Made by a program: the position numbers and the translations under genes. The notes beneath the pieces were generated by a model. The model searched no databases and was not told where the DNA came from. It was given only the letters and a program-made list of their open reading frames with translations. 64,000 bases of DNA from Octopus vulgaris (Eukaryota): assembly GCA_951406725.2 (NCBI GenBank), contig OX597816.1:2728001-2792000 (forward strand). The letters are read 5' to 3'. Positions within the stretch are counted from its first letter, which is position 1. Each line of letters starts with the position of its first letter. Positions 1,039 through 63,672 of the stretch are shown piece by piece.

Positions 1039-2111
1039 TCAGGTCATCCCATAAGTTCTGTCCGAATTTTGGATAAAGAATCCAAGTGATCAAATGTTAT
1101 ATTTAATTGAAGGTTAATCATCAATGTACTTTCCCTGATTATCTATGACTTACTTCCATCTATTTACAAGCTTTTTAATTCCATCAATGTAAAACTCTTT
1201 TGGTTTCAAAGCGAAGAACTCTGAAATGTCAGGTTCGACCTCCTCCTGGCTTGCGAAAGTTGTGTCCCCCTAATAATTCTGTAAACTATGGAACAAATGG
1301 TATCCTGAAGGAGTAAGGTCGGGAGAGTAAGTTGGATGAAGAAATTTTTCCAAACCGACCTCTTCGATCTTCTGTGATGTGATCTTTGCAGTGTGGGGTT
1401 GCGCATTGTCCTGATGAAACATCACTCGTTTTCGACTCACTAAAGCGGCTCTTTTTCCCTTCAAAGCTTGGTTCAAACACTCTAATTGCTGACAGTAGAT
1501 TTGAGCATTGATTGTTGCATTAGGTGGTAACAATATAAAGTGAATTACGCCTTTGCAATCGCACCAGATAGAGTAGAACCTTTTTCCCATGAAGTTCCTT
1601 TTTCGGTTGTGGTTGAGCATTTTCCCTTTTACCAAGCCACTGTTTACGACGTTTAACATTTCGATAGAAAATCCATTTTTCGTCACAAGTCTATCGAAAA
1701 AGGGTGAAATGGGTTTGCGAGAATGGAGAGAAGAGGAGATGTCAACTCGGGATTTGCGGTTGCTTTCGGACAATACATGAGGCACCTATTTTCCAAGTTT
1801 AGGAATCTTTCCAAGTTGTTGAAGATGACGATGAACTGTTGTATGGTTTGAAGTAAGCTTTATTGCCAATTCTTCAACTGATAATGACGGATTTTCTTCA
1901 AGTAATGCCTCAAGGAGCTTATCATCAAACTCAACTGGACATCCTATTCGATCTTCATCTTCAATTTTGCAAACGATCTCCTGCAAGTTCTTTCATTCAA
2001 GCACTTTCCCATAAAGTGAGTGTATGTTTCGAGTCACTTCGGCTGCAGAGTTACCTTTATTGTACACATAAAGAATTATATGTGCCTTAAATGCTCCTTG
2101 GATACTTCCAT
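1039..2111 (-). mobile_element. Degenerate mariner (DD34D) transposon; transposase pseudogene 2111-1114, 3' TIR 1039-1069
   Basis: MEVSKEHLRHI start, *VPHVL (WVPHEL), IWCDCKGVIH, FHQDNAQPH, YSPDLTPSGYHLF with 34 residues between D and the third catalytic site (D>G), GIKKLVNRW..NQGKYID; stops and frameshifts. Confidence 0.92.
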
Positions 2112-2564: not shown

Positions 2565-2699
2565 ACACGCACACACACATAATAAGGGTGAAAATTGAAT
2601 ATTAATTTGATCAATATGAATTGAAAACCAGTGGTGTAGCATATAAGACCATAGCGGATCTTCTTCTAGCAAAATGGATGACCACTGTTAATGGTTCAT

Positions 2700-4914: not shown

Positions 4915-5526
4915 TAAGGCGATGAGCGGGCGGAATCGTTAGCGCGCCGAGTAAAATGCTTAGCAGTGTGTTGGCCGCCGTCCTTACGTTATGAGTTCAA
5001 ATTCCACCGGGGTCGACTTTGCCTTTCATCCCTTTCGGGGGTCGATAAAATAAGTACCAGTTGAACATTGGATGTTTCTTTTATTTTCCTTTTATTCTTT
5101 TACTTGTTCCAGTCATTTGACTGCGGCCATGCTGGAGCACTGCCTTTAGTCGAACAAATCGACCCCCAGGACTTATTCTTTGTAAGCTTAGTAATTATTC
5201 TATCGGTCTCTTTTGCCGAACGGCCAAGTTACGGGGACGTAAACACACCAACATCGGTTGTCAAGCGATAGGAGTGGGACACACACACACGCACACACAC
5301 ACGCACACACACACGCACACACATACATACACACACACACATATATATACGACGGGCTTCTTTCAGTTTCCTTCTCCCAAGTCCACTCACAAGGCTTTGG
5401 TCGGCCTGGACCCGGAACCACGTGGTTGGGAAGCAAGCTTCGTACCACACAGCTACGCTTGTCGATGTAATCGACTTACCCTTCCCCCCCCCAAATTGCT
5501 GGCCTTGTATAAAAATTTGAAACCAC
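4915..5526 (+). mobile_element. SINE family A interrupted by an antisense family B SINE (about 5095-5455, minus)
   Basis: Family A head/core 4915-5070 resumes at 5461 (GTCGATGTAATCGAC...AAATTTGAAACCA); intervening sequence matches family B. Confidence 0.8.
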
Positions 5527-25236: not shown

Positions 25237-27074
<1,838 letters not shown>

Positions 27075-40100: not shown

Positions 40101-41423
40101 GTCACTGCAATGTACAGCGACATCTGTTCGGTGATCAAAGTAAACGGCCACCTATCGGAATCGTTTCGTATCGCACGTTCGGTCCGTCAAGGATGTCCAT
40201 TTCGCTGCTTCTGTACATGTTGGATCTTGAGCTATTGCTACATTCGCTGGATGTTTTGAAGGGCGTCTTGTATGAATTGGGATGTGGAAGGGTCATGCCA
40301 GCTTATGCGAACGGCGTCACCGTGAAATTGTCGGATATCTCGGACATCGAGGTGATCGGTATTGCCCAAAGGGAGTACGAAACAGTGACAAGAAGTCAGT
40401 TGGCCTGCAGCTCGGCACCTGAAGAAGCAGGTCCATGTCGTCCGACAGTGTCGTAGGGCGCTGGACGGAAGGACCTGTTAGGTCCGGACCTCCAGATGGA
40501 CAAGAACTGAGGTGGGGTGACGAGCAGGGCAACTAGGTTCACCCAGACATGGGCAGAGAAGAAACTGTCCCCGAAGAAGGCTCGGGCGGAGGTAGCGGAT
40601 GCATCCTTCGCTTCTGTTATGTATTACCGCCTGACCGTCGTCCCTTGCCCTGCTTCGTGGCGGATCAAGCTGGAGTACTTGCTCTTCCACTTTCTGTGGA
40701 AGGGACTTGTTTCTCTCGTCAGACGGTCCATCTGCTTTCAGCAGCCGTTGAGTGGAGGACCGGGCATTCCGTGGTTAATGATGCATACTGTAACACGCGC
40801 TGAGGTTGCGACACCTGTAGCGTTTCCTTAACGGTAAGCAGGTGTAGTCGCCGTTTGTCAGACAGGATTTTCCGCAGCTCGTCTCCTTGACATAGATACA
40901 GTGTTGGATCAAGTCTAGACCCAGAAAGGGCGCTTAGTGCCGAGAGTGTCGGCAATCGCTCGCAGCTTTCTGCCAGTTGGGTAATGCGGTCGGCGGAAAT
41001 TCCACATTGGAGTTCTGTAAGGGATTAGTGACGATGTCTTCGGGGAAAATCTGGGCGTCGGGAGAGATCAATTAGCCAGTCTTTTCAGGAGTGCCATGAG
41101 AGGGATGGTGGTGGGGGACTTTTCCGGTTCGGGACAGGCTCTACAGGCAGGGACATGCTGCCAGATGGACCTATCCTAGATGTGTCCAGGACAACGAAAC
41201 CGTTTTGCATGCATTCGTCCAGTGACTGGGCATTGCTGACTATTGGAGCTTTGTCGAACAGCTGCTGACACGTGTAGGACGGATCTGGTTATCAGCCGAG
41301 TCCATCGTGAGGATTGCTCCGCTGCCTTCTTTTGACCGCGAAGAGCAGGAAGTTTTTCACTGTCAGGTGGCTATGACGAAAGAGGTAGTGTGGTGCATAA
41401 GGCTGAAAGGACTTTCAGCTAGC
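36750..41423 (+). mobile_element. Near full-length, heavily decayed Tx1/L1-clade LINE (ORF1 remnant, APE endonuclease, RT)
   Basis: ORF1 LHVTVEG..knuckle remnant; INV..AVSET, LVGDLNA, GYWKLNASL; LLSADYNILAKVLARRL, QTCAIP.RSIHD, KAFSRVDH, SVRQGCP, AYANGV (YADD); C-terminus homologous to 25237-26400. Confidence 0.92.
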
Positions 41424-44309: not shown

Positions 44310-44717
44310 ATGCCTACAAAGAGACGACGTGCGCTTCCCTATCTCTCCCTATCTCTCCCCATCTCTCTCCATCTCTTCCGCGGTGTTCCTAATGTAAGTG
44401 TAAAGTGAATCCACTTCGTAAGTCCCCCCCCCCACACGTGTAAGATTCCATCCAACTTGTCTTATCTTGACCGACGGTACCCATCAACGAAGATGGGAAG
44501 TTAATTTCATTGGGAACCTCTTTCGATTCTTCTCATTTGCTATCAACGTCAGCTTCCGTCACTAAAGGTCATCTAGGAAAAGCTTCGTTGAAATATCCAA
44601 TGAAAATTTTATAACCGTTTAACTACATACAGTTCTATAGTTAAGAGACGAGCAATTATGGACATTATTTACATTATTTATATTCGACAGATATTTGCCC
44701 TCATCTTGTTTGTTGTT

Positions 44718-44763
44718 AACACAACATTTCGGCTGATATATCCTCCAGCCTTCATCAGGTGTC
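44718..44763 (-). ncRNA. Minimal type I hammerhead motif (left arm)
   Basis: GACAC-CTGATGA-A-GGCTG(loop)CAGCC-GAAATGTT-GTGTT; C>T in stem III. Confidence 0.7.
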
Positions 44764-45006
44764 TTGGGGAAATTTTGAACCTGGGGTTTCATTCCTAAGG
44801 CATTTTCGATGTTATCATCATCATCATTATTATTCAGGTCACTGCCTGGAATCGAACTCGGAATCTTAGTGTTAGTAGGCCACTTAACTACACCATATGC
44901 TGTGGGCCACTTAACTCTTAACCACTACGCCATACGGGCATATGGTGTAGGGGTTAAGAGCGCAGGCTACTAACCTCAAGATTTTGAGTTCGATTCCAGG
45001 CAGTGA

Positions 45007-45200: not shown

Positions 45201-45746
45201 AAGTACCAGGCAGAGGCTCTCATGGCTTCTGATCTTAACTGATTGGAAGTGTTATCATGTACATTGTTTTGTCTTGGTATAAAAGATCGGCTACAGCAAA
45301 TATTCTGCTCAATACCACAGATTTGCTTGTCAGTTGTTTGACCGTAACCTGTTGAGCATGTCCCTTAGTGGCTGACGATATGTGCATCTCTGATCACGAA
45401 CAGAAGTAGTGGGGGAGCATCATAGCCGTATGTTGAGAGGGATTCTTTGGGGTTTGAATAATTCACCTCTGGAAACATGGGTGTTTCGTTCAACATCCTT
45501 AAACAACCCTTACTCAGGGACCTTTTGAGCAGGATGGGTTACTCGACCAGAAGAAAATTCTAACTGGGCCCCACCTGCAAGGTCATGTGCTGTTTATCTT
45601 GATATGAGATCATCATGTCGCGCACATATGGTTGTGATGCATGTGCCTGGTGTACCCTTATCAGACGGGTAGTCATGATGGGTATACTGGGCTTCGTATA
45701 TTTTACCCCAATGTTACTTTGATGGCATGCACTGCTCTCTCACTCA
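45201..45746. mobile_element. Non-coding element inserted in the (TAA)n of the palindrome's right arm
   Basis: (TAA)n on both sides, absent from the left arm, second copy at 24510-24758. Confidence 0.8.
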
Positions 45747-45812
45747 ATAATAATAATAATAATAATAACATACCTTAGGAATGAGAACCCATGTTCGAAA
45801 TTTCCCCAAGAA

Positions 45813-45858
45813 GACACCTAATGAAGGCTGGAGGTTATATCAGCCGAAACGTTGTGTT
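45813..45858 (+). ncRNA. Minimal type I hammerhead motif (right arm)
   Basis: GACAC-CTAATGA-A-GGCTG(loop)CAGCC-GAAACGTT-GTGTT; G>A in CUGAUGA. Confidence 0.7.
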
Positions 45859-46311
45859 AAGAACAAACAAGATGAGGACAAATATCCGTCGAATGTAAAT
45901 AATGTAAATAATGTACTTTTAACTACATTGGACGTTTCTTTTCTTTAGAGAATTGGTACCAATTCTAGCAATCAATTTTGAATTTCAACATTAATGTTGT
46001 TGGTCATGCTAAGACAAAACTGTAATCTCAATAAACAGATGCAAATGTATTCTTAAAATTAATTCACTCACGCAAAAAAAAAAAAAAAAAAAAAAAACTT
46101 ATAGAAGAAATTTAGAAAAGTTTCTGTTCGGAGATCATGCTATTTTTTCTATATAAGATCGAAGAACGCTCTGTGGTTAACATGTAACTTAGGGGCTTGA
46201 AAAAGGGTTAAAGTACACTGATCCGAAGTGACGACAGTGACATCCCATAGTTCTATGAAGAGAACTGGTGAAATCCCCAAATTCTGTTTAGCGAACTCCT
46301 TCATTATGTAT

Positions 46312-55089: not shown

Positions 55090-55284
55090 TTTTACTTGTT
55101 TCAGCCATGCTGGAGCACCGCCTTTAGTCGAGCAAATCGATCCCGGGACCTATTCTTTGTAAGCCCAGTACTTTTTCTATCGGTCTCTTTTGCCGAACCG
55201 CTAAGTGACGGGGACGTAAACACACCAGCATCGGTTGTCAAGCAATGCTAGAGGGACAAACACAGACACACAAACATATACATA

Positions 55285-55347
<63 letters not shown>

Positions 55348-55502
55348 GACAGGCTTCTTTCAGTTTCCGTCTACCAAATCCACTCACAAGGCTTTGGTCG
55401 GCCCGAGGCTATAGCAGAAGACACTTGCCCAAGATGCCACGCAGTGGGACTGAACCCGGAACCATGTTGTTGGTTAGCAAGCTACTTACCACACAACCAC
55501 TC
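55090..55502 (-). mobile_element. SINE family B, essentially full length
   Basis: Minus strand: GAGTGGTTGTGTGGTAAG..GGGTTCAGTCCC (A/B boxes), CTTGGGCAAGTGTCTTCT core, (TA)n, conserved tail. Confidence 0.9.
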
Positions 55503-57820: not shown

Positions 57821-58137
<317 letters not shown>

Positions 58138-60887: not shown

Positions 60888-61078
60888 GTTTAGTCGAACA
60901 AATAGATCGCAGAGTTTAGTTTAAGATCGGTAATTATTCCTTCGGTCACTTTTTGCCGAACCGCTGCGTTACGGGGCTGTAAACAACCGATGCCGGTTGT
61001 CAAGATGTGATGGGTAAAACCGAAACACGCACGCGCGCGCACACAATCTCGTGTATGTGTGTGTGAACGTATCTATCC

Positions 61079-61217
<139 letters not shown>

Positions 61218-61218
61218 C

Positions 61219-61839
61219 ACAATCAACTAATAAGGGTGAGAAAATTGGATACTAATTTAATAGTACCATCAATTTAACACCAAGTGTCTTAGTGCATAAA
61301 AACCAGGAATACAATAAATTTTATACGTAAATATAAGAGAGTGACTACTATGTGGTCGACTCGAGCACTAAAAATAGATCCGCTACGGTTTAGCCACGAA
61401 GAATTGTTTCCGATGAAAGTTAGCACAACTATTAGCGTAAACGAGTAGGGCAAATAAAAAACAACAAAAATGCAGATTAATTCAGGACAATTGTTTCGCT
61501 ATTAATAAATTATGTAATTTTACTCACATAACATATCTGTAGCTCCTCGGCTGAATTTGTCTAGAATACAATTTACTCAACTGCATGCCAGATTTTACCA
61601 TAACGATAAACACACATGCGGTTCAGTCGATTGCATTCACCGTTATAATTCAAGTGTCCCCGCCAAAGCCCGCCAAAATTCACGGAAACAGATACTACAT
61701 CAAAAATTAAATGCAGTATAATTACAATCAACTAATAAGGGTGAGAAAATTGAATACTAATTTAATAGTACCATCAATTTAACACCAAGTGGCTTAGTGC
61801 ATAAAAGCCGGGAATCCAAAAAATTTTATACGTAAATAT
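61219..61839 (-). mobile_element. Direct-repeat element (~506 bp period, ~115 bp terminal redundancy) carrying a hammerhead
   Basis: 61219-61333 repeated at 61725-61839; related fragment at 2581-2650. Confidence 0.8.
61479..61557 (-). ncRNA. Type I hammerhead ribozyme motif
   Basis: AATTCAG-CCGAGGA-GCTA...TAGC-GAA-AC(AATT)GT-C|CTGAATT: 7 bp stem I, GUC triplet; U4>C in core. Confidence 0.75.
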
Positions 61840-62229
61840 GGCGGGCTTCTTCCAGTTCCTGCCGACTAAATCCCCTCACTTGGCACTGATCGGCCTTGGG
61901 CTGCAGACGACACTTGTTCAAAGTACCCTGCTGTAGGACTGATCTCCAAAATACAGGATTGTGAAGGCAAGCCTGTTAGCCACTCGGCCATTCGACCTGC
62001 CTACTTTTGACAAATATTTTATCAGGTTTATTGGGGTAAACTCGACTTTTGTCCAGCGTAAAGAAATGATTCGGTGATGTTTGTGTGAGAAGAAAGAGAA
62101 GGAAAGAGAGAATGAGAGAGAGGGAAGGAAAGACTGGGAGGGAAAGATGGAGAGAGAGTGAAAGAGAGAGAAATGGCGGGAGAACTAAAGAACTTAAGTG
62201 AGTGAGAGAGGGAGCGAGAAAGAGAGGGC

Positions 62230-62479
62230 TTTTTGGGGGGTACTCATCCCTCTGAATACCCGCTCCCCCATTTGCTGCTATGGCAGACCCAAGTGAGAGG
62301 AAAGCGTCAGAAACCCGAGTCTGCTCAATCCGGAGTTACCCTAACATTTCGCCTTGACCTTAACCGCCACCGCCCGCCGCCTCCACCACCACCCGCCGCC
62401 TCCACCACCACCAAATATCTCAGACATTTCCGATCGCATCTCTGCGTTGATTGATCTCAAATATTCGTCTCTTTGATAG
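62230..62479 (+). other. Possible non-coding (alternative 5') exon
   Basis: Unique GC-richer block after a GA-rich tract, ending at consensus donor AG|GTGAGT; start uncertain. Confidence 0.3.
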
Positions 62480-62929
62480 GTGAGTGATTGAATTTTTATG
62501 CTTTCCAAAGTACTTTTCATACAGTGAACAACGTTTATTTTCGTTGCTTTTAAAATTTCCTAAACTTAATATACGGCACGTCAGTAGTTCAGAAAATTCT
62601 TATCGATTTTTGTTTGGTTCCTGGAATCTATTGCGTCACTCTACTTTAAATATCGATTATTTTTGCTTACATTTTATGTCCTCTATGCAACAGTGTCATA
62701 GTATATAGTGCAGTCGATTGCTTTGATCCTTGTGTATAACTGGTATAGCAATGAAATAACCCAGTGGTGTGTAAGTTCAAATTCACTGTAGGTATGTCAT
62801 TGTGCTTCTTTAGGAAGTATTTTATGTAGGGATCTGTCTGCCTGCTTGCCTGCCTGCTTGTCTCACTGTCTGTCTATGTATGTATGCAAGCATCTATCCT
62901 TCTCTCTATATATGCAAGTACCTACCTAC

Positions 62930-63353
<424 letters not shown>

Positions 63354-63406
63354 TAAGACAACAAAAGAATGAAAGAGGACCTCGATATTATGTAAATAGA
63401 GGAATT

Positions 63407-63639
63407 TATCTGTAAATGTAATATGTAACAATTATTTGGTAGCCATGATAAAACTCCGAGTTTCGTATGTCGGGGTGGAAGTCCACGCCGCCATCTATTC
63501 AGTTATCCGGCCAGATTTTTCATAGCATTTTTCCCGATGGCCGGTTAATTGAAGAGATGGCGGCGTGAATTTCCACTCCGACATCCAAAACTCGGAGTTT
63601 TATCATGGCTACCGAATAATTGTCACATATTACATTTAC

Positions 63640-63644
<5 letters not shown>
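63407..63644. mobile_element. Fold-back element, ~107 bp arms, each with a decayed hammerhead
   Basis: 63407-63513 is the reverse complement of 63538-63644; 24 nt spacer. Confidence 0.85.

Positions 63645-63672
<28 letters not shown>

Follow-up and report, generated by a model that had tools for sequence, protein, structure and literature searches.

The question raised by this locus is whether a short AT-rich stretch of octopus DNA, repeated in part at its two ends, is what remains of a self-cleaving RNA element, and by which route such an element would have come to lie in a microsatellite. The stretch (61219-61839) belongs to a window of 64,000 nucleotides, by which we mean the whole piece of Octopus vulgaris contig OX597816.1 that was analysed. 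A first-pass annotation made from the letters alone had proposed a remnant of a ~500-nt retrozyme or pLTR-like element, possibly circular as RNA and carrying a well-formed type I hammerhead.

The repeated unit and its hammerhead motif

The two ends of the stretch form a direct repeat (61219-61334 and 61724-61839) of 116 bp that is identical at 110 of 116 positions and has a spacing of 505 bp. The layout described at first pass, a ~506-bp unit plus a ~115-bp repeat, therefore stands with slightly corrected lengths, 505 bp for the unit and 116 bp for the repeat. That the 621-base element holds no ORF was also correct: over six frames no stop-free stretch exceeds 69 codons and no ATG frame exceeds 41. 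At 505 bp, non-coding, AT-rich and without LTR-type coding capacity, the unit fits the description of a retrozyme; the locus itself contains 1.23 units and one hammerhead, and is not an array of two or more units. The features on the hammerhead-sense strand are as follows.

61219..61723, minus strand: full 505-nt non-coding unit (repeat comparison and ORF check; family contigs cover it end to end)
61219, minus strand: left end of the element, adjoining the microsatellite; 3' terminus on the hammerhead-sense strand
61724..61839, minus strand: second unit, 5'-truncated, 116 nt, forming a pLTR-like terminal redundancy (repeat comparison)
61692..61719, minus strand: 10-bp hairpin adjoining the unit junction (folding; a homologous variant occurs in loose ends at 61708)
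61479..61557, minus strand: type I hammerhead motif (descriptor scan and fold)
61549, minus strand: core position 4, which is C in this copy (contig variant table)

All parts of the minus-strand motif named at first pass (stem I, core, stem II, GAA and palindrome) were located. Helix I consists of 7 bp (AATTCAG at 61557-61551 with CTGAATT at 61485-61479), the core reads CCGAGGA (61550-61544), and the helix II region (61543-61498) folds into 4 bp, a 2x2 loop, 4 bp, a 1x1 mismatch, 9 bp and a hexaloop. GAA (61497-61495) and the palindromic ACAATTGT (61494-61487) follow on the same strand, with GAAA at 61497-61494 and a helix III of 2 bp closed by a palindromic AATT loop. Because C17 is position 61486, the cut is predicted between 61486 and 61485. 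The topology of a type I hammerhead, that is three helices around CUGANGA, GAAA and NUH with helix I open, is thus present in this copy; an intact invariant core is not, since position 4 is C. Moreover, this copy is predicted to misfold: in its minimum-energy structure, 3.0 kcal/mol below the catalytic fold, C4-G5-A6 pairs with the strand of helix III.

A strict type I descriptor, which was built with the motif already known and accepts C4, finds one match in the 64 kb on both strands and none in 60 block-wise dinucleotide shuffles. With a relaxed descriptor the window gives four matches against a mean of 0.23 per shuffled window (100 shuffles), and no shuffled match has a helix I of at least 7 bp. 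Folding z-scores are -4.0 for the motif, -4.4 for the linear unit and -5.7 for the unit closed into a circle, a value equalled by none of 60 shuffles, and the circular fold of the hammerhead-sense strand is predicted at -133 kcal/mol compared with -90 kcal/mol for its complement. The comparison with hammerhead models proposed at first pass, carried out through Rfam, failed to return any hammerhead family for the element at E up to 1 or up to 10; the long helix II may be the reason.

Family copies and core position 4

Copies of the element were taken from the public contigs of four of 24 sequencing runs, three of DNA type and one presumed to be RNA. The three DNA-type runs contain 520, 849 and 711 matching contigs, most of them 80-95% alike. 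They cover every bin of the unit; their depth is no measure of copy number. Judged from these contigs the family is a large, abundant and diverged repeat, and the 520-849 diverged contigs per DNA-type run agree with the many genomic copies expected of a retrozyme. In these contigs, which are short, no tandem array of the family was seen. One contig bridges this junction (61680-61806) and, in two runs, well-supported contigs cross it as far as 61708 and then continue in similar sequence; as read from such contigs, the unit junction is a feature of the family. Three joints in the DNA-type runs that appear to go back within the unit were considered as proof of arrays and rejected, as their reads fit either repeat. 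An opposite-strand joint, 61261/61605, occurs in two runs with one contig each and is of the kind expected of Penelope-type inverted arms.

The family contigs also settle the choice between C and U at core position 4 that the first-pass annotation had left for a cleavage assay. U4 accounts for 2101 of 2101, 4845 of 4845 and 6923 of 7006 depth units at 61549 in the three DNA-type runs (98.8-100%), which makes U canonical and C essentially private to this copy, and rules out C4 as a conserved natural variant of the family. The family has the canonical core CUGANGA, whose free position N7 (61546) shows variation in 54-64% of depth. At the other core positions (61550, 61548, 61547, 61545, 61544 and 61497-61486), where depth reaches tens of thousands, no variant is found among the best-supported 40 of 86 variant rows. 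The earlier description of a well-formed hammerhead consequently holds for the topology and not in the functional sense, C4 being essentially private. In the viroid literature, U4C "considerably decreases activity in vitro" and a viroid with the same variant stayed infectious (PMC3088659). From its sequence, the ribozyme of this copy is likely crippled by the U4-to-C change; we say crippled and not dead because that viroid variant remained infectious.

Divergence of this copy is not confined to position 4. Among the best 40 of 86 variant rows there are nine, position 4 included, at which this copy differs from at least 95% of the depth in all three DNA-type runs. The two repeats differ at six of 116 sites, and at the decidable ones, 61287 and 61753, the odd letter falls once in each repeat. 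Such sequence comparisons favour reading C4 as a lesion that this copy acquired by decay once it had inserted.

Conservation of the stems is a separate matter, since the first-pass annotation had held that stems without conservation or covariation in other copies would speak against it. The core appears conserved; covariation is not significant. In 36 unphased variants from the best 40 of 86 rows, placed on the circular fold, 13 keep a pair, two close a 1x1 mismatch, 14 are unpaired and seven break a pair; the pair broken at 61616 is compensated by 61586 (A-U versus G-C) in the flanking rod. Over the unit, six broken pairs compare with 9.6 expected by random placement (P = 0.058), and within the hammerhead one compares with 1.7 (P = 0.42), neither being significant. 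At paired positions of helices I and II, four of the five listed changes keep a standard or wobble pair, and none is two-sided within the motif. At 61480 lies the commonest change in helix I (87-89% of depth); in the context of this copy it disrupts pair 2.6-1.6, and it sits in very deep contigs whose partner strand is probably too diverged to match.

Several further observations concern relatives and look-alikes. Loose ends at 61292 and 61797 show relatives in three runs that share only the 3'-terminal ~75 nt (61219-61292) and then diverge; the mobilising enzyme may recognise the element by this shared segment. At 61531, loose ends share the distal helix II hairpin and then continue into sequence in which the base of helix II, the core and helix I all differ; in one run the consensus core is canonical and has an additional base following A9, in another it reads C4, each consensus comprising two or three contigs with an agreement of 0.71-0.75. 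This suggests, at the level of these short consensuses, sister families with reshuffled hammerheads. An exact-motif scan of viral contigs gave no matches. Metagenome contigs gave 26 loci, which were set aside as unrelated, the longest alignment being 27 bp with none reaching into the unit and no hammerhead at the motif. Three sets of these loci share only an 18-base pattern with the element, with no hammerhead at that place:

Metagenome locus set 1: L002, L005, L008, L009, L011, L025
Metagenome locus set 2: L003, L012, L018, L024
Metagenome locus set 3: L007, L014, L016, L017, L019, L021

In the run presumed to be RNA, contigs identical to this copy, C4 included, cover 61406-61510 and 61481-61576 at a depth of 4-7 with no differences, contigs of diverged relatives reach a depth of 1636-2893, and the short right flank (61883-61960) has a depth of zero. 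Contigs show neither strand nor ends nor circularity and DNA is possibly present in this run, so these data are only a lead to transcription and are not used as evidence of expression. A joint from 61770 to 61447 in the same run was discarded as a sign of a circle, its pieces being colinear with one unit on the first repeat. RNA editing was likewise dropped, the excess of A-to-G on the sense strand (17-20 places versus 10-12 per DNA-type run) being too weak.

Insertion footprint and origin of the copy

The surroundings of the element record how it arrived.

61070..61218, no strand: (TATC)n(TC)n(TA)n microsatellite, inferred insertion target (sequence inspection)
60889..61045, plus strand: left portion of an older interspersed repeat that the insertion divides (homologues at 5145-5309 and 55123-55242)
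61840..61942, plus strand: right portion of that older repeat (homologues at 5347-5407 and 55344-55453)

At both other copies of the older repeat in the window the two halves are separated by a microsatellite only. Because the flanks of the element are consecutive halves of this one repeat, the element was inserted into the (TA)n tract. Read in the sense of the hammerhead, the 116-nt 5'-truncated unit comes first and is followed by the full unit ending at 61219. The last four bases of the second unit, ATAT, resemble the target microsatellite and give the far junction a microhomology with it. No target-site duplication, inverted arm or tail is recognisable at the locus. A relic elsewhere in the window (2571-2647, 77 bp, 76% identity over 75 bp) lies directly after (CA)n and has the same 3' terminus, so that both window copies share their 3' end and the reading of a fixed end is based on these two. 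An inverted arm beside the relic (2644-2669) was not significant, 37 of 1000 shuffles being as good.

Taken together, the partial tandem, the microsatellite target, the microhomology and the lack of a recognisable target-site duplication give a footprint that looks Penelope-like. A bias towards microsatellites has been described for Penelope-like elements (10.1101/2021.04.23.441226), as have partial tandems with microhomology and without target-site duplication (PMC3846280) and inverted arms (10.1101/2021.04.23.441226; PMC3846280). When the unit is read as a circle, the hairpin at 61692-61719 lies just past the 3' start point and is, in the folding model, a candidate for a Penelope-type "tail".

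These observations are best explained, with a probability that we put at roughly 0.75, by a dead-end insertion of an animal non-LTR retrozyme, in which a Penelope-type reverse transcriptase would have copied a unit-length RNA circle into (TA)n and after which the ribozyme was likely crippled. The earlier proposal of a retrozyme or pLTR-like remnant is in this respect supported by the high copy number of the family, its spared core, the restoration of U4 and the Penelope-type footprint. Of the idea that the RNA is possibly circular, the retrozyme remnant is retained and a monomer circle from this locus is not: because there is only one hammerhead, no unit-length circle can form from the locus by double self-cleavage. 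By analogy with the class, multimeric source copies elsewhere would be transcribed, and their hammerheads would cut as dimers through the palindromic helix III, ligation then yielding ~505-nt circles. A Penelope endonuclease would nick the TA microsatellite, and reverse transcription would start at the fixed position 61219, run once round the circle and 116 nt further, and be joined through the ATAT microhomology. Such an event would split the older repeat at its microsatellite and leave a product without an inverted arm, the arrangement now found, and would be followed by divergence of the kind seen at six of 116 repeat sites and at position 4 among the nine private differences. The action of hammerheads as dimers via helix III has been described (PMC4209133), the definition of retrozymes and a proposed circle-templated copying are given in PMC7229834, and phylogenetic backing for the retrozyme cycle, an origin from PLEs and the occurrence of monomer derivatives in 10.64898/2026.07.22.740005. 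By the criterion of the latter work the locus is a non-active monomer derivative; eight of nine predicted retrozyme dimers remained uncleaved in vitro in the same study.

The competing origin that holds up best is the 3' end of an autonomous PLE. On this view a template jump along a linear mRNA would have produced the locus as a doubly 5'-truncated partial tandem (505 + 116 nt), and neither a circle nor a non-coding family of its own would be involved. Such an origin would leave an identical footprint, most Penelope insertions are indeed 5'-truncated with hammerheads in their pLTRs (PMC4209133; 10.64898/2026.07.22.740005), and in the related families at the loose ends the similarity is limited to the 3'-terminal ~75 nt or to the distal helix II hairpin, the latter with a different sequence flanking the core. 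However, a template-jump junction should be unique to its locus, whereas contigs of diverged relatives cross 61723/61724 and no loose end falls at 61723 among the 24 listed of 328. The 7-bp helix I and the lack of an extra base after A9 also differ from the minimal PLE type (PMC4209133), and the unit is predicted to fold as a closed rod-like circle. The element, without an ORF, has none of the RT and GIY-YIG coding capacity of an autonomous PLE, and a Pfam search of eight selected of the 136 window ORFs gave no Penelope-type domain. On balance we regard this origin as unlikely.

An origin without a circle, from a linear multimeric transcript of a retrozyme-type unit or from an array trimmed by DNA recombination, appears improbable. 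A truncated copy of a linear concatemer would give a 1.23-mer equally well, and tandem growth by unequal crossover has been proposed (10.64898/2026.07.22.740005), but the clean insertion into a microsatellite and the microhomology at the far end point to a single retrotransposition event, and a start at 61219, away from 61486, would not be expected of a linear RNA cut by the hammerhead. That the motif is a chance fold of AT-rich sequence, or a copy co-opted as a cis-acting ribozyme for a neighbouring transcript, is scarcely credible despite the missing Rfam match, the low-depth contigs identical to this copy (C4 included) in the run presumed to be RNA and a possible exon ~400 bp away on the other strand, since the shuffles yielded no comparable hammerhead, the family restores U4 and varies at N7, and the loss of U4 with a predicted misfold is the opposite of selection for function.

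Other features of the window were recorded in passing. The possible exon is a GC-richer segment (62236-62490, plus strand) that ends in a canonical splice donor at 62480 and is possibly a first or untranslated exon. An inverted pair at 44662-44837 and 45743-45914, 85% alike over 179 bp, has a minimal Penelope-type hammerhead in each arm, one with an intact CTGATGA core at 44758 (minus strand) and the other with a changed core; from its sequence, the pair is a two-armed Penelope-style insertion of another family. At 58006-58042 (plus strand) a minimal hammerhead-like motif with C at core position 4 lies in a repeat that has three other partial copies in the window. The window is rich in microsatellites and contains a MITE-like inverted repeat (63389-63662, arms of 125 nt, 86% complementary, 24 nt apart), as well as mariner-type transposase (PF01359) and LINE (zf-RVT, PF13966) fragments at 1270-1785 (minus strand), 25275-26393 (plus strand) and 40393-41383, the LINE fragment with zf-RVT having a diverged second copy in the window.

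Relation to retrozymes, Penelope-like elements and viroid hammerheads

Among the listed publications on hammerhead ribozymes and octopus, none deals with such elements by title or abstract. A 2026 repeat annotation of Octopus vulgaris reports 31 recently active Penelope-like families, and its main text makes no mention of hammerheads, retrozymes or ribozymes (PMC13282606). The class of retrozymes is already known and the locus is an ordinary aged member of it; as an old and probably inactive copy it carries little weight on its own, and the family members with U4, rather than this copy, are suited to experiments.

A more far-reaching joint reading can be formulated, which we consider tentative and, as a whole, rather doubtful. 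It holds that in the long helix II the place of terminal loop 2 is taken by the 2x2 CA/AA loop located 4 bp from the core, which docks on a matching CA/AA loop 7 bp along helix I, that relatives of the element belong to the abundant RNAs of the animal (contig depth of 1636-2893 in the run presumed to be RNA), and that the 1.23-unit copy directly records how a Penelope reverse transcriptase, starting at a fixed point next to a hairpin, made one turn of a 505-nt circle. Such an architecture does not appear in the retrozyme descriptions consulted, and the supplementary mussel hammerheads of PMC7229834 may bear on whether a long helix II is rare.

With regard to single features, the change at core position 4 is the same as in the U4C viroid hammerhead cited in PMC3088659. 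There it is a tolerated natural variant; in the present family it occurs almost solely in a single genomic copy.

The closest likeness is to the animal non-LTR retrozymes described in mussel (350-390 bp), coral and axolotl (PMC7229834) and in 10.64898/2026.07.22.740005, which are likewise non-coding, a few hundred bases long, low in GC and high in copy number. Each of their units also has a single type I hammerhead whose 2-bp helix III is palindromic, their circular fold is strongly self-paired and leaves the ribozyme arms exposed, and solo monomers have been described among them. The 505 nt found here exceed the 170-400 nt of invertebrate retrozymes (PMC7229834) and lie within the range of 51-972 bp given in 10.64898/2026.07.22.740005. 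The family departs from canonical retrozyme motifs in its interrupted helix II of 46 nt, with an internal loop where terminal loop 2 usually sits, and this copy departs from active retrozymes in its C4, its single hammerhead and its lack of a recognisable target-site duplication. In all, the animal retrozymes gain from this family another unit size and a hammerhead with a long helix II.

With endonuclease-positive PLEs (PMC4209133; PMC3846280; 10.1101/2021.04.23.441226) the element shares the partial tandem with a 5'-truncated upstream copy, the microsatellite target, the microhomology junction without target-site duplication, the hammerhead in a repeat and, in a relative, the inverted junction. 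Unlike PLEs it has no ORF between or beside the repeats, and unlike in PLE pLTRs its hammerhead is placed outside the 116-bp redundancy and belongs to the canonical type rather than the minimal one. The locus provides a further footprint that fits the proposal, as yet unproven, that Penelope-type enzymes mobilise retrozyme circles.
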